Sequence record: OZ035791.1
Length of the DNA: 40,766 nucleotides
From: Kagunavirus LF7074P3
Strand: one strand, 5' to 3'
Shown: piece by piece, positions 13,001 through 36,063 of the stretch
Layout of the letters: each line of letters opens with the position of its first letter
Position numbering within the stretch: position 1 is the stretch's first letter
Position numbers and translations under genes: made by a program
Notes under the pieces: generated by a model
Database searches by the model: none
The model's input: only the letters and a program-made list of their open reading frames with translations
Told to the model about the DNA's origin: nothing

Positions 13001-13030
13001 TTTAAACCCCTTCATTGTTGGTGTAAGTGA

Positions 13031-13059
13031 ATAGTACCCTATTATATTGGGGTGTGCAA
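13031..13059 (-). promoter_or_regulatory. sigma70-like promoter TTGCAC-N17-TACTAT driving the minus-strand island
   Basis: Minus-strand reading cTTGCACaccccaatATAATAGGGTACTATTCAC; 32/34 identical to promoter at 34757-34790. Confidence 0.6.
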
Positions 13060-18496: not shown

Positions 18497-21042
18497 TTCT
18501 GCACTACACGCGAAACGCTGATGGCGCTTTCGGCCGTACAAAACACGTCGGGATGCCGATGGAGTTTGTCGTTAGTCGTATCCCTGACGGCGTGCCGGTG
18601 CGCGTCTACCTCGGTGAGATTGGCGATGATACAGACGTAACGGACGACTTCGACGCGCTTAAAGATGAAGACGCTGTGTACCACATTATTGAGGGTGCGG
18701 GTAGCGGGGCGCTCGGTGCGGTTAGTAAGGTGTTTGGTTTTATCCTTAAGCCAATCGCCAAGTTGTTTGGCCTGAACACGGCCGCCAACGCCAACTACAC
18801 GGCGACTAACAACCAGACAACATCACCAAATAACAGCCTCACAGACCGCTCAAACAAACCACGCCCTTACGAGCGCTCCTATGACATCTGCGGGACTGTG
18901 CAGACAATCCCTAATGACCTGATGCAGACGTATAAGGCGTTCAACTCCACTGGTGCTTTGCTGGAGTATTCGTACTATGACGCAGGGCGCGGACATCTGC
19001 ATATTGAGGCTGATGGCGTCACAGAGGGCGACACCATGATAAGCGACATCACAGGTTCATCTGTTGCCGTATATGCGCCGTATACGTCACCGAACAACAC
19101 CGCATCTCCGCAACTACAAATCGGCGACGTCATTGACCAGAAACTCTATGTGACATACTCCAACGACGACGTTGACGGTATTGTGCTGAAAGCGCCAAAC
19201 GACATCGGAGCTAACCCAAGCGCCGACGGCACAGCTAAACGTATTTCAAACACCGGCTACATCTATGACCCGTCAGGAGACTCTGCTTTTTCTGAGTTTC
19301 TTAGCGTCGGTGATGTGGCGGTGCTGAGCAACTTTGACGTTGCTGATGTCACTAACCTGAACGGCTCGTTTGAGGTTTTATACGTTGACGACTTCGAAGT
19401 AAGATTAGTCGTAAACGGTGCGTCTAACTGGGCCGCGTTGACCAGCGGACAGACGTACACGCTAACAGAGCGTTCAGATACGTTTATCGGCCCGAGCAAC
19501 ACATATGACGTATCTCTTACGGACTGGTATTACATGGTACGCGGAGAAGTTGACCGGGTACTTGCTAACGTTGCCGGGCAGAACGGCCTCTACAAATACG
19601 ACGGAGGCTATAACCGCACCAGTGTAACGGTGGAACTCCAGTACCAGATGATTGATTCTCAGCGTAACCCGTTGAGCGATATTTACACGGTACAGGCCAC
19701 AATTACAGGCAACAATACGGATTACGTCGGTACGTCTATCTACGGGCAATTGCCGACCGCGTCCCGTTTCCGCGCCCGTATGCGTCGTGTAACTAATTTC
19801 GATAAAGACTACGACGGTACGGTAAGCGACGAGATAACATTCATTAACCTGTATGGGCAGTCTCTGGACACCACTCCACACTACGGCAACAGAACTACCG
19901 TACATTGCGCCCGTAAACAGACGCCGCGTGCCGCCAGCATAGACAACCCGGAACTGCGCATGATTGCAACCGAGATGTGTTACAAATACCTCGGCAATGG
20001 GGTATTCGATACAGTAATGACACCGAACACGCAAGCCGTACAATCTCTAATTCGACTGGCGCGCGACCCCGCAGTAGGCAATCTGGAACTGACAACGGCA
20101 AACATGGACAAGTTACTTGCTGTGCAGGAAGAAATTGAGTCCTATTTCGGAAGTGAATTAGCAGGGCAATTCTGCTACACGTTCGACGACTATGACACAA
20201 CCATGCAGGACATCGTCCAGACCATAGCGGAAGCCGTTTTCTGTACTGCGTACCGTAAAGGTGCGGATATTATGCTGCGATTCGACCGTCCTGTCGCGGG
20301 GCCTGAAATGGTGTTCACCCACCGCAGCAAAACTACCGGTACCGAGAAATGGACCCGCACGTTCAACGATTCGACAACCTACGATAGCCTGTCGTTCTCA
20401 TACATCGACCCGGATACTAACGTACAGGAAACGATTTACATCCCGGAAGAACTGGGTGCAAATACGGAGGAATACGAATCAAAGGGCGTGCGTAACTACC
20501 AACAGGCATATTGGCTGGCGTGGCGTCGCTATCAGCGCAATGCGTTAAGTAAAGTTGTTGTAGAGTTCGAAGCTACGGAAGAAGGTGCGCTCGCTACGCC
20601 CGGTGGGGTAATCAGCGTAGTTAAAGGTTCACGTATCGCGCCACAGGACGGCTATGTTGTTGCCGTTAACGGGCTTACACTTACGCTATCCCAGCCTGTT
20701 ACGTTTACTCCTGGCGACGACCACTCCATCATTCTTAAGAAGCGCGATGGCTCAGTGCAGAGTATCTCTGTCATCAAAGGAAGACACGACCGCGAAGTGA
20801 TTATGCTCTCCGCGCCGGAGGAGGCAATCTACACGGGGAATAGCGCACTAAAAACTGAGTTTTCATTCGGCAACGAAGCAAGGCATAATGCCCAGAAGAT
20901 AGTTGTTTCTTCAATCGACCCTGGCGACGACCGCACGGTCAAGATTACTGGCTACAACTATGACGACGGATTCTATAAATACGACGGCGTCGCGCCATAC
21001 GGCAGCGGTTTCTCCGACGGATTCAGCAATGGTTTTAATTAA
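18487..21042 (+). CDS. tail tip / central fibre protein (gpJ-like, positional)
   Basis: 851-aa ORF; TTG start at 18487 with GGAG 8 nt upstream (alternative ATG 18553). Confidence 0.6.
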   Translation: MAIILHYTRNADGAFGRTKHVGMPMEFVVSRIPDGVPVRVYLGEIGDDTDVTDDFDALKDEDAVYHIIEGAGSGALGAVSKVFGFILKPIAKLFGLNTAANANYTATNNQTTSPNNSLTDRSNKPRPYERSYDICGTVQTIPNDLMQTYKAFNSTGALLEYSYYDAGRGHLHIEADGVTEGDTMISDITGSSVAVYAPYTSPNNTASPQLQIGDVIDQKLYVTYSNDDVDGIVLKAPNDIGANPSADGTAKRISNTGYIYDPSGDSAFSEFLSVGDVAVLSNFDVADVTNLNGSFEVLYVDDFEVRLVVNGASNWAALTSGQTYTLTERSDTFIGPSNTYDVSLTDWYYMVRGEVDRVLANVAGQNGLYKYDGGYNRTSVTVELQYQMIDSQRNPLSDIYTVQATITGNNTDYVGTSIYGQLPTASRFRARMRRVTNFDKDYDGTVSDEITFINLYGQSLDTTPHYGNRTTVHCARKQTPRAASIDNPELRMIATEMCYKYLGNGVFDTVMTPNTQAVQSLIRLARDPAVGNLELTTANMDKLLAVQEEIESYFGSELAGQFCYTFDDYDTTMQDIVQTIAEAVFCTAYRKGADIMLRFDRPVAGPEMVFTHRSKTTGTEKWTRTFNDSTTYDSLSFSYIDPDTNVQETIYIPEELGANTEEYESKGVRNYQQAYWLAWRRYQRNALSKVVVEFEATEEGALATPGGVISVVKGSRIAPQDGYVVAVNGLTLTLSQPVTFTPGDDHSIILKKRDGSVQSISVIKGRHDREVIMLSAPEEAIYTGNSALKTEFSFGNEARHNAQKIVVSSIDPGDDRTVKITGYNYDDGFYKYDGVAPYGSGFSDGFSNGFN

Positions 21043-28847: not shown

Positions 28848-28876
28848 ACTATAATAGCTAACTATTCAGGTGTCAA
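28848..28876 (-). promoter_or_regulatory. sigma70-like promoter TTGACA-N17-TATAGT (minus strand) with ATAG-N4-CTATTCA dyad
   Basis: Minus-strand gTTGACAcctgaatagttagctatTATAGT; 55 nt upstream of SSB-like gene start. Confidence 0.7.
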
Positions 28877-31138: not shown

Positions 31139-31168
31139 ACTATAATAGCGAACTATTCATGATGTCAA
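31139..31168 (-). promoter_or_regulatory. sigma70-like promoter TTGACA-N18-TATAGT (minus strand) with ATAG-N4-CTATTCA dyad
   Basis: Minus-strand aTTGACAtcatgaatagttcgctattATAGT. Confidence 0.65.
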
Positions 31169-31173
31169 TGGGC

Positions 31174-31204
31174 TTTTCTAAAATAATTAATATGGTACTA
31201 TTCA
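31174..31204 (+). promoter_or_regulatory. candidate rightward promoter/operator for cro-like gene
   Basis: ATAT-ggta-CTATTCA dyad (31190-31204) with TACTAT -10-like hexamer; -35 poorly defined. Confidence 0.3.
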
Positions 31205-31465: not shown

Positions 31466-33673
31466 CTATTCCAAATCCTCTTCTGTCACCACCAGCATTT
31501 CATTCGGTTCGTATATTGTCTTCGGTCTTAGTCTATCCCCTATTCTTTCAGGTATACGATACGTTCTCGGTACTACTTCGCCATTAGCATCACAGCCTAG
31601 CATTAGTTCACCATCTTTCAGCATTTTATCAAGATGGGTGTTAGTCACAGAAAAGTCACCGGAACGGGCCACTATCTGCTGCTGAGTAAAACCGCGACCT
31701 GTGTCATCTGACTGTTGCAGGTCTTCCAGTGCCGAAAGTATCGACTCCTTCCTTACTTCATCCCTGCCGCGTTTAACTTCTTCCTTTACTTTTTGTTTAC
31801 CTTCGTTAGTTAACCCTTCTTCCCGCTCTTTCTCCTCGTCAGTTTTGAACGGCTCGAAGCCCCACGGCATCAGAACAAGCGCCTTGTGTGGTTCCGGCAG
31901 GTCGAGGTTTACGATTGTGCCGTATTCCTCTGTGCTGCCCAAGAACTCAACAGCACGGTACTCTTTCGGCGGTGGTGCTTCACGGAACTGTACAGACTCA
32001 AGTACCATGCCAACCGTTTTCTGTTGAGGCCCGTGCTTAAATTTCGAGTGGTATACGTTTATCTGACGGTCGGTTGCACGTTCTATTGTCAGTTCCACAT
32101 CGACACCCGCATACAGCGCCCCGCTGCCACGGGCTTTCTTTCCGCCCTTCGGTGTATGGTGGACGACGCCCACCGCGGCTTTAGTTGCGTCACGTACTTC
32201 TTTAAGGATGGCGATAACTTTACCCATGCCGATTGCCGTTGATGAACTGTTCTCGTCGAACTTATCAATCGTCATGGCCAGTGTCTGGTTAAGGGTGTCG
32301 AACGCAACCATCCCAATTGGCTCGTCACCCGCAGTTTCTCGCATTAGCTTAATCAGGCTTTTCAGTTTGCCAACTTCGCCCATATCGATGACATGTACAT
32401 AATCTTTACCTTCCTCGCCGTATTTAGCCGCGAGTGCATCAATACGGGTGCGTGTGGCAGCACCGCCCTCACCGTCAATATAGAAATGGTGGCAACGCTG
32501 TGTATCAGCGCCTGCAAACCGGTACCCGGCGGCGCTCAGGTACATCATACCCAGCGTATAGAATGATTTATATGTGCCGGATTCCCCGACGATGTCCCAG
32601 ATGCAATCCGACGGCATGTACCCTTCAACGACGAAATCAGCCTTTACCGGTTCAGGTAACTCGTCATCGTCTTCAAGGTCTTCCAGTGTACAAGTTACAG
32701 GCTCCTCGTTCTCTGTGCGGTGCAGTTCTTCAATCTCTTCATCCGGTAAATCAGGCAGAGCCGCACGAATGCTGTTAATACTGATAGGTTGCTTGTCTAC
32801 GTTAAGCTCGTCCGGAAGGCCGCACATACGCAGGGCCAAATGTTGTCGGCGGTTAAGCTCAGTGCAAGCACCGTTGTTTGTGTGCTGGCACACGAAGCGC
32901 ACTTCTTTACCGTCGAGCATGATGCTGGTGGAGCCTTTGCCGGTGTGCAGGTGTTCGTTAGGGCAAGGCACTTCGTACCCGCGACCGGAAGATAAAGCGT
33001 CAAGGCCAAGCTCCGCTTCGCAGAAATGCGCTATATCCGCGTTAAGCCCATGCTCATCGGCAGCAAGGGTCTTAGCTTCACGCTTACGCAACCCCATTTC
33101 TTCGGCTTTCTTGATGTACCGCTCGGCACGGATAACACGCCCTTCTGTAACCGTTATCTTCGACTCTTTATGCGGCAGGTAGATAAGGCGGTTGCCATCT
33201 TCTGTGCAGTGGTCGCGCAATGCTTCGTCTATTTCTAACTCAGCACAAATAGCACGTTGCACCATCCACGCGTCGTTAGAGTTAAACGGCGTGCGGGCCG
33301 GTACAAGAACGCGGAAAGCGTAGTCACCGTTTTTACACGCGTGCTGGTGCGACGCCGTTGTGTGCAGAATATTGAAGAACGGCGCGTTCTTGAATTTGCG
33401 GGTGAGGTCGCGGTACTGGGTACGGTTTAGATGGTCGAAATCGAACTTAACCACACTGTCTTCCAGAATCGCGTTCTTACGGCGACCGCCAACCGGCGCA
33501 ATAGCTTTCTGCTTAATCTTGGCCGCGTCGTACTCTTCCTTAGTCCATGACGGGTCTACGGACAGACGCTTCGATGTATCGCAGACATACTCTACAAACT
33601 GCTCCAGTGGCATTTCACGGGCTACCGGGTTTTTATCGAAAGTGTTACGCAGCGTTGCAAAAACAATATTCAT
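31466..33673 (-). CDS. DNA primase / RecA-like ATPase (primase-helicase-like) replication protein
   Basis: 735 aa; central Cys/His zinc-binding-like segment (CPNEHLHTGK...C), Walker A-like GESGTYKS and Walker B-like VAFDTL. Confidence 0.7.
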   Translation of the reverse strand: MNIVFATLRNTFDKNPVAREMPLEQFVEYVCDTSKRLSVDPSWTKEEYDAAKIKQKAIAPVGGRRKNAILEDSVVKFDFDHLNRTQYRDLTRKFKNAPFFNILHTTASHQHACKNGDYAFRVLVPARTPFNSNDAWMVQRAICAELEIDEALRDHCTEDGNRLIYLPHKESKITVTEGRVIRAERYIKKAEEMGLRKREAKTLAADEHGLNADIAHFCEAELGLDALSSGRGYEVPCPNEHLHTGKGSTSIMLDGKEVRFVCQHTNNGACTELNRRQHLALRMCGLPDELNVDKQPISINSIRAALPDLPDEEIEELHRTENEEPVTCTLEDLEDDDELPEPVKADFVVEGYMPSDCIWDIVGESGTYKSFYTLGMMYLSAAGYRFAGADTQRCHHFYIDGEGGAATRTRIDALAAKYGEEGKDYVHVIDMGEVGKLKSLIKLMRETAGDEPIGMVAFDTLNQTLAMTIDKFDENSSSTAIGMGKVIAILKEVRDATKAAVGVVHHTPKGGKKARGSGALYAGVDVELTIERATDRQINVYHSKFKHGPQQKTVGMVLESVQFREAPPPKEYRAVEFLGSTEEYGTIVNLDLPEPHKALVLMPWGFEPFKTDEEKEREEGLTNEGKQKVKEEVKRGRDEVRKESILSALEDLQQSDDTGRGFTQQQIVARSGDFSVTNTHLDKMLKDGELMLGCDANGEVVPRTYRIPERIGDRLRPKTIYEPNEMLVVTEEDLE

Positions 33674-33798: not shown

Positions 33799-33838
33799 TG
33801 TATAATCCTTGTGCTTACTTTGATGATTTGTGCTTCGG

Positions 33839-33869
33839 CCCCGACGTTCTAGCGTTGGGGTTTCTTTTT
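33839..33869 (+). terminator. plus-strand hairpin + T-tract inside leftward operon
   Basis: CCCCGACG-TTCTAG-CGTTGGGG (one G-U) followed by TTTCTTTTT; hairpin weaker on minus strand. Confidence 0.4.
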
Positions 33870-34158
33870 ACCGTTTAGCCAACTCTTCCAGCAAATTTTT
33901 ATACTCTTCAAAATATTCCTCGACCAAATCATCGCCGAAATAGAAGTCGATATACTCGAGATTATCTCTTACGTTAAGCGACGCAGACATGGTGCTTAGT
34001 TGGCGTAAGCTAATTAGCTTCATTTCTGTTTCTACACAGAAAGGCCGGTAGGTATCGAGGTGGCAAGAGATGTTGAAGCATAAAGCGAACTCTCCCGCCA
34101 CGGAGTGAACCATATACACTTCGTTTTCTGCTTTATTGTGGAAAATTACACCTTTCAT
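33868..34158 (-). CDS. hypothetical protein
   Basis: 96-aa ORF, ATGA overlap with upstream HTH gene. Confidence 0.45.
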   Translation of the reverse strand: MKGVIFHNKAENEVYMVHSVAGEFALCFNISCHLDTYRPFCVETEMKLISLRQLSTMSASLNVRDNLEYIDFYFGDDLVEEYFEEYKNLLEELAKR

Positions 34159-34397: not shown

Positions 34398-34434
34398 CCA
34401 ATCCCTGCAATATTTAATCTTTACAAAAAAGTTA

Positions 34435-34464
34435 TTGAAAGTTCTTGACACATGTTTGTATAAT
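34435..34464 (+). promoter_or_regulatory. rightward promoter TTGAAA-N18-TATAAT
   Basis: Consensus -10 TATAAT at 34459-34464; divergent from leftward promoter; no ORF for about 350 nt downstream. Confidence 0.5.
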
Positions 34465-34491
34465 GGTTTTGGGACTTGTATATATTACGGA

Positions 34492-34523
34492 GTTGACGAA
34501 CCCTCCCTGAGGGATTCGTCAAC
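34492..34523. repeat. 32-bp near-perfect palindrome GTTGACGAAcCCTCcctGAGGGaTTCGTCAAC
   Basis: 14-bp arms with one bulge; read directly. Confidence 0.8.
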
Positions 34524-34663
34524 CCCTCCCAGACAGCTGAGATGCTTGTTTTAGGGTTTAAGGATAAGTGTATCTAAATCTCATTTAAAGAAGTAACCCA
34601 CTGAAATATCTACTGTTTCTTAATGTGCCGTAGATTCGCAACCGTAAAAATGTAACGATTATT

Positions 34664-34691
34664 GGGCAGGCTTAAGGCCTGCCCTTTAGTT
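34664..34691 (+). terminator. rho-independent terminator
   Basis: GGGCAGGC-TTAAG-GCCTGCCC hairpin followed by TTTAGTT. Confidence 0.6.
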
Positions 34692-34756
34692 ACCAAGTAA
34701 TAAGAATAAAGGCACAACCTTCCCCGAAGAATCGCAACGGCAGCGTAACTATTCTC

Positions 34757-34785
34757 TTGCACACCCCAACATAATAGGATACTAT
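34757..34785 (+). promoter_or_regulatory. sigma70-like promoter TTGCAC-N17-TACTAT with ATAG-N4-CTATTCA dyad
   Basis: cTTGCACaccccaacATAATAGGATACTATTCAC; near-identical copy on minus strand at 13027-13060. Confidence 0.65.
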
Positions 34786-34819
34786 TCACTTATCGGAACG
34801 AGACAGAGGAGTTGGGGTT

Positions 34820-35005
34820 ATGTTTAAGAAGGGTCAGTTGGTGAGAACCAGACACCATGGCAAAGGTGTAATTAAGCACGTTTCGCAGAGAGTTGCAGAT
34901 AGGTATCTTCTTACCAATCCGTATTGGGATTTTGATATGTATTTCCAGGGACGCGAAATAGTAGAGCTCATCGGCAACAATTTTAAATTCAAAGGGGCGA
35001 AGTGA
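34820..35005 (+). CDS. hypothetical small protein
   Basis: 61-aa ORF, RBS GAGGAG. Confidence 0.5.
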   Translation: MFKKGQLVRTRHHGKGVIKHVSQRVADRYLLTNPYWDFDMYFQGREIVELIGNNFKFKGAK

Positions 35006-36003: not shown

Positions 36004-36032
36004 TTGCACACTAAGATAGAATAGGCTACTAT
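36004..36032 (+). promoter_or_regulatory. sigma70-like promoter TTGCAC-N17-TACTAT with ATAG-N4-CTATTCA dyad
   Basis: aCTTGCACactaagatagAATAGGCTACTATTCA, 32 nt upstream of gene at 36064. Confidence 0.6.
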
Positions 36033-36063
36033 TCATTTACACAAACGAGAGGGGAGACAGAAT

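Follow-up and report, generated by a model that had tools for sequence, protein, structure and literature searches.

In bacteriophage T7, the primary origin consists of the promoters phi1.1A/B followed by an AT-rich region; in lambda, the PR'-6S RNA-tR' segment forms a late control unit subject to Q antitermination, and in HK022 the put RNAs are cis-acting antitermination stem-loops found just downstream of the early promoters. The closest published architecture that we found for the locus considered here is the replication origin of the lactococcal Ceduovirus phages (c2, bIL67, and 923), a non-coding stretch located between divergent gene blocks, flanked by the co-directional promoters PE1 and PE2, devoid of any open reading frame (ORF) or ribosome-binding site (RBS), and giving rise to a non-coding PE1-T transcript implicated in transcription-mediated initiation (PMC7150918). 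The origin sequence comes in three versions that are unrelated to one another, with more than 90% conservation inside each (PMC7150918). Here, we examine the intergenic unit found at positions 34435-34691 of Kagunavirus LF7074P3 (record OZ035791.1, a stretch of 40,766 nt hereafter called the window), a 40.8-kb representative of the Guernseyvirinae, a subfamily of virulent siphoviruses of 41-45 kb. As far as analogy allows, this unit displays each of the features that describe the Ceduovirus origin: it too lies between divergent blocks, holds no ORF, is associated with two co-directional promoters (P_R at 34435 and a second one at 34757), and exists in unrelated types (A vs. B, C, and D), each of them conserved (at least 94.9% identity across 20 phages for type A). 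The two systems differ in that they share no sequence similarity, that the host of c2 is Gram-positive, and that c2 origins replicate plasmids without phage proteins, when an origin activity is here suggested by likeness.

From the comparison of related phages, it is well supported that this locus is a conserved non-coding unit selected for the structure of its predicted RNA, and the unit probably makes a functional non-coding RNA; we infer that this RNA, rather than a protein or a protein-binding palindrome, is the selected product. What was already known for the region, in the literature searched, amounts to automated promoter and terminator calls (fBC-Eco01 record and paper), and the same searches yielded no description of a small RNA (sRNA) or an origin in Guernseyvirinae. 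The region is 98.9% identical to Kagunavirus LF7074P1 and matches hundreds of genomes of E. coli Kagunavirus and Salmonella Jerseyvirus. Across the 60 loci that we collected from IMG/VR, metagenomes, and GenBank phages, every inspected relative presents the same layout, namely a leftward promoter (P_L), a near-consensus rightward promoter (P_R), 220-290 nt free of ORFs, a GC-rich hairpin, a shared anchor of the form GAATC(A/G)CAACGGCA(A/G)CGTAAC, a second rightward promoter, and the first rightward gene. The promoter TTGAAA-N18-TATAAT, which the initial annotation had read as facing rightward at 34435-34464, is borne out as a statistical outlier with conserved hexamers: sites matching the sigma-70 consensus at 11 or more of 12 positions number 3 over both strands of the window, against 0.37 expected from 200 shuffles, and P_R is the sole one on the plus strand. 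Its hexamers are invariant among all A-type relatives, its counterparts in the other module types stand at the same relative place (their sequences are given in table 1), and a predicted host promoter is annotated at this very position in the fBC-Eco01 record.

That the stretch encodes a small protein, or that its 32-bp palindrome is a double-stranded DNA operator for the 60-amino-acid HTH_17 protein encoded next to it, is a pair of readings that we hold to be highly improbable. With regard to coding, no plus-strand ORF of at least 20 amino acids starts between the predicted transcription start and the ATG at 34820, and the sole ATG ORF (34542-34577, 11 amino acids) has no usable RBS and undergoes non-synonymous changes in relatives. 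Two minus-strand ORFs, at 34421-34522 and 34610-34789, are annotated in some public records (Bas71_0054/0055; CDS0073/0072 of vB_Eco_ORH_001), but neither matches any PHROG family, the longer one (34610-34789) is broken in relatives by deletions of 10 nt and larger, and the two calls overlap the promoter and the hairpin. These "hypothetical protein" genes are very likely false gene calls, and coding on either strand was rejected on account of the lack of an ORF, the lack of a PHROG match, the indels, and the non-synonymous change, in agreement with the initial description of about 200 nt without any RBS-bearing ORF. The Rfam search that this description had called for matched no family: with Rfam 15 and permissive thresholds, the best hit, Hrs12, reached 22.6 bits where the gathering score is 70 and covered the terminator only, and no match was obtained for four other module combinations (B, C, D, Y, and Z versions). 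The unit also showed no similarity to any of 5,426 complete E. coli genomes, on which basis a host-derived sequence or a prophage relic was rejected.

The case for selection on the RNA itself comes from its fold. A 225-nt RNA starting from P_R is predicted to fold at -70.1 kcal/mol (z = -4.64), a stability attained by 0 of 200 shuffles, and other module versions also fold better than their shuffles (z = -3.73, -2.35, -6.0, and -3.1). About 21 nt past the predicted start (~34471) begins a hairpin that we call SL1, which reads GTTGACGAA/CCCTC - CCT - GAGGG/(A)/TTCGTCAAC, with a stem of 9 + 5 bp and a 3-nt loop, and which, at -23.8 kcal/mol on the plus strand (z = -4.8), is more stable than any other 40-nt local fold of either strand in the window. 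A hairpin with a 14-bp stem near the start of the transcript, as initially proposed, is therefore retained, when the accompanying 32-bp palindrome turns out to be imperfect on account of a bulged A at 34514. The heptamer CCCTCCC occurs twice here, in the 5' arm of SL1 (34501-34507) and in its 3' flank (34524-34530). Among the A-type relatives examined, SL1 varies only at a loop base (T/C), and B-type relatives carry, at the same place, a hairpin of different sequence and identical topology.

An alignment of 22 distinct B/X units analyzed with RNAalifold yielded a consensus made of a long 5' stem-loop domain and the terminator. In the basal helix of SL1, a G-C pair becomes A-U in 7 sequences, and another pair varies between A-U, G-U, and G-C. 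Overall, 18 cells are changed on both sides of pairs, a number reached in 0 of 500 shuffles; in controls where the 3' partner was shifted by 1-3 columns, 0-9 such cells were counted and pairing fell to 29-47%, against 99% for the real structure. This covariation, seen at 4 pairs, is real but rests on few independent events, and we regard it as moderate evidence. The apex of SL1 is moreover swapped in a cassette-like manner: in B-type Kagunaviruses, its mean identity is 68% (minimum 40%), with flanks at 93% or above, and five apex variants as well as the A-type SL1 of the window all form a stable stem-loop at the same place despite the replacement of its sequence. The position of an inverted repeat beside a divergent HTH gene is what speaks for an operator. 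However, the HTH protein is identical across the B-type SL1 variants, the same HTH protein accompanies unrelated A and C modules, and the relatives keep the ability to form a hairpin rather than its sequence, unlike an operator; since the palindrome thus does not co-vary with the HTH protein, we rejected it as an HTH operator.

The 3' part of the unit is organized around a second hairpin, GGGCAGGC-TTAA-GGCCTGCCC (also written GGGCAGGC/GCCTGCCC), which is followed by TTTAGTT, ranks fifth for local stability in the window, may be prolonged by an optional outer helix (GTAAC 34652-34656 with GTTAC 34689-34693), and coincides with a predicted terminator in the fBC-Eco01 record. In relatives, a C-G pair is replaced by U-A (Jersey-type phages), an A-U pair by G-U (L023/L044), and the loop is flipped (L010/L057/L058). 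Its tail, UUUAGUU, is composed of 3 U, AG, and UU (5 U in 8), the corresponding figure being 3/8 for the hairpins of the Y and Z modules. Sequence conservation extends ~35 nt past the hairpin (TTTAGTTACCAAGTAATAAGAATAAAGGCACAAC, AT-rich), where E. coli and Salmonella phages differ as little as they do over the 60 nt that precede it, so that the unit possibly does not end there. The imperfect U-tracts, together with a conserved block centered on the hairpin, limit the simple reading of an sRNA that ends at a terminator. Of the GC-rich terminator hairpin initially placed at 34664-34691, the hairpin itself stands, and its stem is maintained in evolution, when its action as a terminator and the end of the unit at that point are putative; in the same vein, the notion of a non-coding promoter-to-hairpin unit is upheld by the kept layout, the compensated stems, and the general absence of ORFs, with transcript ends that are deduced and a unit that is possibly longer.

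The sequence between the two rightward promoters is a mosaic of four 5' modules (A-D) and three 3' modules (X-Z), mutually unrelated, of which the combinations A/X, B/X, C/Y, C/Z, and D/Y were seen, implying that the two halves recombine freely around a junction at ~34601. Module A is confined to some of the E. coli Kagunaviruses; the other relatives have, in its stead, a stretch of comparable length that bears no relation to it. Module X is present in at least 334 phage records (266 from Salmonella, ~63 from E. coli) of a 50,697-record collection in which parts of the whole gap have matches in 387, and a core, ATATCT..CTG.T..TGCCGTAG, is recognizable in X, Y, and Z. Between Kagunavirus and Jerseyvirus, block X is 90-93% identical (90-95% for the ~35 nt past the hairpin), when the 5' half is at 27-64% and the HTH gene at 76-79%. 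It could be argued that the promoter and the hairpin are incidental or insulating elements of a recombination-prone spacer, conserved through recent horizontal spread: the region is a clear recombination hot spot with module swapping, E. coli and Salmonella phages may owe the high identity of their X blocks to recent transfer rather than constraint, and the four covarying pairs are a modest signal possibly produced by few events. Such a lack of RNA function is nevertheless very unlikely in our view, as all four unrelated 5' modules have retained, in an equivalent position, a near-consensus promoter and, behind it, a stem-loop of unusual stability, as the SL1 fold outlasts a complete replacement of its sequence, and as these compact phage genomes yet maintain a gap of 483 nt here and ~600-1000 unannotated nt in Jersey-type records.

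Table 1. Features of the Guernseyvirinae non-coding unit and its surroundings (window coordinates).
Feature	Position	Strand	Remarks
HTH_17 protein, 60 amino acids	34155-34337		Leftward operon
96-amino-acid protein and AAA_25 helicase-primase			Leftward operon, after the HTH gene
P_L, leftward promoter TTGCTT-N17-TATACT	TTGCTT 34397-34392, TATACT 34374-34369	-	Serves the HTH/96-amino-acid/helicase-primase operon; read from sequence
P_R, rightward promoter TTGAAA-N18-TATAAT	TTGAAA 34435-34440, TATAAT 34459-34464	+	11/12 sigma-70 match; predicted start ~34471
Predicted non-coding transcript, ~221 nt	34471..34691	+	Ends inferred from sequence
5' module A, transcribed part	34465..34600	+	20/50,697 phage records, all at least 94.9% identical, all E. 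coli phages (window and 19 others)
5' module B			Most Kagunaviruses and Jersey-type Salmonella phages; TTGACA-N17-TAAGGT/TAAGTT
5' module C			Golestan, NRG857CP3; TTGACT-N17-TAAGCT
5' module D			K1G; TTGACA-N16-TAAAAT
SL1 hairpin	34492-34523 (extendable 34489-34526)	+	14 bp, one bulge
3' module X	34601..34719	+	Window type; nearly invariant, centered on the terminator-like hairpin
3' module Y			K1G, NRG857CP3
3' module Z			Golestan
Terminator-like hairpin	34664-34684, with tail to 34691	+	-17.1 kcal/mol, 8-9 bp
Right-hand anchor GAATCGCAACGGCAGCGTAAC	34729-34749	+	Follows every 3' module type
Second rightward promoter TTGCAC-N17-TACTAT	34757-34785	+	Present after X, Y, and Z alike
Quasi-palindrome ATAATAGGATACTATTCA	34771-34788	+	Carried by the second rightward promoter
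ATAATAGGATACTATTCA copies	13028-13045 (-), 28851-28868, 31142-31159, 31187-31204, 34771-34788, 36018-36035		

As to what this RNA may do, the two roles put forward in the initial annotation, a regulatory RNA or an origin-associated transcript, are still the leading two. The one that we tentatively favor, on the basis of analogy and at somewhat less than an even chance, is that of a real early non-coding transcript with an origin-associated priming or activating role. Host RNA polymerase would start at the sigma-70 promoter 34435-34464 and make a structured RNA of ~220 nt, comprising the 5' SL1, a middle domain, and a conserved 3' domain; this RNA would end, at least partly, at the GC-rich hairpin 34664-34691, and either transcription from P_R as such, or the RNA 3' end at the hairpin together with the AT-rich block, would activate or prime replication by the T7-like replisome encoded immediately left of the unit. 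The genomic context is in line with this scenario. The unit is placed within a 483-nt gap between the leftward operon and the first rightward gene (ATG 34820), which is the largest non-coding gap of the region examined and lies at the divergence point of both gene arms, P_L and P_R being arranged back to back with 37 bp between their -35 boxes. In Bas71, a curated close relative whose arm layout is matched by the ORFs of the window, the leftward genes form a replication module of the T7 kind, encoding a helicase-primase, an exonuclease, a gp2.5-like single-stranded DNA-binding protein (SSB), DNA polymerase A, and a second helicase; in the window, the helicase-primase gene starts ~760 bp left of the unit, followed along the same arm by those of DNA polymerase A, SSB, and exonuclease. 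In the rightward arm of Bas71, ~14 small ORFs precede two holins and an endolysin, after which come further small ORFs, the terminase, and structural genes; the proposed placement between the leftward promoter and the rightward genes is thus correct, but the qualification of the latter as simply early is not.

The likeness to T7 thus concerns both the replication proteins encoded beside the unit (family A DNA polymerase, gp2.5-like SSB, helicase-primase) and the succession of a promoter-driven, here predicted, transcript and an AT-rich tract (34685-34712). This tract is short (~28 nt), and T7 relies on its own RNA polymerase, when none is encoded by these phages (neither a phage RNA polymerase nor an antiterminator is annotated in Bas71), which implies that the host sigma-70 enzyme would have to act. 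The conservation of block X over ~35 nt past the hairpin, into the AT-rich tract, fits a site acting at the DNA level better than the 3' end of an sRNA, and the cumulative GC skew reaches its global minimum, along with the lowest GC content (0.41), at 34-35 kb of the window.

Several observations weigh against an origin-associated role. The GC-skew signal is confounded, since its minimum coincides with the place where the coding strand switches. No iterons were found in the unit, nor any enrichment in short repeats beyond chance: an apparent enrichment in GTAAC/GTTAC was rejected, as the window as a whole contains 3.2 copies of this motif per kb, with a second locus of equal density; TGTTCACC, which we take to be the iteron of the P4 alpha protein, has one copy in the B module and none in this region of the window; and AAGAATAAAGGCAC occurs a single time in the window. 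There is no G-rich, R-loop-promoting stretch in the unit, the RNA being instead rich in C downstream of SL1. Module type shows no correspondence with the type of the helicase-primase N-terminal domain, which was rejected as a cognate protein partner. The imperfect U-tract is found in all three 3' module types, such that the hairpin may be leaky or may not be a terminator. Natural 5'/3' chimeras are common (A/X, B/X, C/Y, C/Z), and chimeric c2 origins are reported to be non-functional (PMC7150918). The unit heads the lysis/structural arm, whereas that of c2 heads the early arm. Finally, the published RNA-seq of K1B4, a near-identical phage, is given solely as counts per gene (PMC12645636); in OQ696342, the unit is on the minus strand, with its 5' part at 19,367-19,502.

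There is, in addition, a minor but real chance that the unit produces a trans-acting early sRNA, released at the hairpin and either base-pairing with host or phage RNAs or acting as a decoy on RNAs or proteins, with the variable 5' module as specificity determinant and the conserved 3' module as scaffold. The unit does have the look of a stand-alone promoter-to-hairpin element, with downstream genes that possess their own promoter, and its stems are preserved structurally; it is in the size range of Hfq-type sRNAs (prophage DicF and IsrK, lambda OOP), with which it shares an own promoter, a terminator-like 3' hairpin, and the variable 5'/conserved 3' anatomy that is usual in enterobacterial sRNA families. 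Furthermore, B-type and K1G-type units carry a C/U-rich stretch resembling an anti-Shine-Dalgarno sequence (CUUUCCUUCCUU, CCCUCCUUC), for which predictions give 76-82% unpaired. However, the C-rich stretches of the A-type unit of the window are mostly paired (predicted unpaired probability 0.29-0.38) and the C-type RNA has none, so an anti-Shine-Dalgarno seed common to all types was rejected, such a seed being limited to types B and D to the exclusion of A and C. The longest complementary match elsewhere in the phage genome is 11 nt, which shuffles equal or surpass, and antisense or long-range pairing to phage mRNAs was accordingly discarded as nothing beyond chance. Unlike Hfq-type sRNAs, the unit has no long U tail (UUUAGUU), no Rfam match whatever the module type, and no conserved accessible seed (type A), it lies antisense to no gene, and a trans-acting sRNA would leave unexplained the conservation of 35 nt beyond the hairpin.

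The imperfect U-tracts that follow strong hairpins in all three 3' types suggest partial termination, and thereby bring up another reading, which we consider unlikely, where the unit is a cis-acting leader of the rightward arm: transcripts from P_R would pause or terminate at the hairpin, and read-through, whether basal, protein-mediated (lambda Q-like), or RNA-mediated (HK022 put-like), would feed the small ORFs, the lysis genes, and the structural genes, the structured RNA being the control element. The unit indeed heads the whole rightward arm, in a position that we take to be like that of lambda PR'-6S-tR', with a strong constitutive sigma-70 promoter, a non-coding transcript of ~200 nt running to a terminator, and a lysis/morphogenesis arm behind it; the block conserved past the hairpin is consistent with a leader as well, and a quick inspection of some Jersey-type phages revealed only a diverged second promoter with no clear -35 box. 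As in HK022, a structured RNA comes right after a strong promoter, with a terminator-like hairpin further on and structure kept over sequence, although put RNAs are ~70 nt long with two defined stem-loops and resemble the unit neither in sequence nor in fold. Against a leader, the promoter of the downstream genes belongs to a class repeated 6 times in the genome, and no Q-like or other antiterminator family was detected in the flanking proteins, in the part of the rightward ORFs that was scanned, or in the annotation of Bas71. The unit also departs from lambda PR' in that no Q-like gene is present upstream or in the parts scanned, in that ~2.5 kb of small ORFs and further promoters separate it from the lysis genes, and in that its 3' domain is conserved far beyond the needs of a mere terminator. 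Besides, the type of 5' module is independent of the HTH protein and of the small protein encoded downstream of the HTH gene, the latter being likewise rejected as a cognate partner.

Whichever role holds, the kind of element is already known, and what is notable is how consistently it recurs in the family, how its modules form a mosaic, and how the SL1 apex behaves like a cassette. With regard to the latter, one may picture a modular, fast-evolving early non-coding RNA locus whose SL1 apex and swappable modules are specificity determinants under diversifying selection, which could serve to evade or decoy host RNA-sensing or RNA-guided defense, or could reflect origin competition/incompatibility among co-infecting relatives; we deem this quite unlikely, and, if true, it would represent a class of phage RNA so far undescribed in virulent siphoviruses of enterobacteria.

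Kagunavirus and Jerseyvirus rank with the E. coli and Salmonella phages that are isolated most frequently, with uses in therapy, biocontrol, and as synthetic chassis, and the examined part of the genome holds no larger non-coding element than this unit, which gene callers often mis-annotate as two hypothetical proteins. If it specified an origin transcript, it would define where and how these phages start replication with the host RNA polymerase; if it specified a trans-acting RNA, it would be an abundant immediate-early effector. Either way, the unit is unsuited as a "neutral" insertion site and should not be disrupted in engineered phages, and its mosaic structure provides a natural swap experiment.

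The promoters around the unit deserve a few additional remarks. The architecture of P_L, TTG(C/A)TT-N17-TATACT, is also found in the unrelated B-type and Golestan versions, and the PVP-SE2 annotation has a phiSITE promoter at the corresponding site. The quasi-palindrome ATAATAGGATACTATTCA of the second rightward promoter has 6 copies in the window against 0.02 expected; it lies in the TTGCAC-N17-TACTAT promoters at 34757-34785 and 36007-36035, and, on the other strand, in TTGACA-N17/18-TATAGT promoters at 28876..28848 and 31168..31139. For fBC-Eco01, the reverse complement of this motif has been reported as a "phage RNA polymerase promoter" consensus, despite which the close relative Bas71 has no annotated phage RNA polymerase gene, and the motif probably marks a phage-regulated class of host-polymerase promoters. 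Another arrangement of such signals, probably the "first unit" alluded to in the initial annotation, is found on the plus strand at 33802-33870, with TATAAT at 33802-33807, a GC-rich hairpin at 33837-33862 (-17.0 kcal/mol), and TCTTTTT; it is antisense inside the leftward operon, between a 42-amino-acid ORF and the 96-amino-acid gene, and fBC-Eco01 annotates a terminator on both strands at this site.

Other versions of the locus have peculiarities of their own. In Jersey-type records, the ~600-1000 nt without annotation to the right of the HTH gene (L051-L056, ~320 to 900-1320 in locus coordinates) contain the B/X unit as well as a second conserved hairpin, GCACTTGCC-TTAC-GGCAAGCGC. The sequence AGAATAAA(AA)GGCAC is also present there a second time, and in some phages this additional copy directly adjoins the -35 box of a TTGCGT-N17-TACTAT promoter. 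These phages may harbor a second non-coding unit. The Z-type unit of Golestan (L047:1290-1316) bears a (TCAC)n microsatellite of ~6-7 repeats just upstream of a GGTGCC-TTCG-GGCACC hairpin. The 5' hairpin of K1G (L046:1267-1286) reads GCCCCGC-CATAAA-GCGGGGC, and its six inner base pairs (CCCCGC/GCGGGG) are presumably those of the E. coli type I-E CRISPR repeat stem; a CRISPR-repeat mimic was rejected, with no match to an Rfam CRISPR-DR family and no such resemblance in the hairpin of the window. Five assemblies (celemicas NC_073202.1, dunkel, sidste, templet, and the IMG/VR contig L024) start inside the unit, at the equivalent of window positions 34597-34645. As celemicas is merely permuted around the circle, with its cut falling between ...GATTCGCAACCG and TAAAAATGTAACG... 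and no terminal repeat, and as PhageTerm found no termini on fBC-Eco01, a genome end or pac site was rejected, and these starts are arbitrary linearizations or assembly breaks at the variable/conserved junction, not physical ends.

Within the leftward arm, two B-type Kagunavirus contigs (L010 and L013) carry an extra insert of ~140 nt between the HTH gene and the leftward promoter, with a small minus-strand ORF (MVTLTEEQLKELLIEAWFNGHDESRYCPNKYGTATAFAREVIKEIKDD) that is upstream of the HTH gene in the leftward transcript. The helicase-primase, for its part, is a domain chimera family-wide. Its C-terminal AAA_25 half (amino acids 343-735) is 72-98% identical everywhere (as compared in L007, L015, L021, L059, L060, and L061), when its N-terminal domain of ~340 amino acids (amino acids 1-342, window 32648-33673 on the minus strand) exists in barely related types: one is that of the window and Golestan (99-100% identical), and the other occurs in K1G, NRG857CP3, and the B-type Kagunaviruses, Jerseyviruses having a variant of it that is 57% identical. 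Between these two types, identity is only 21-32% over 60-180 amino acids.

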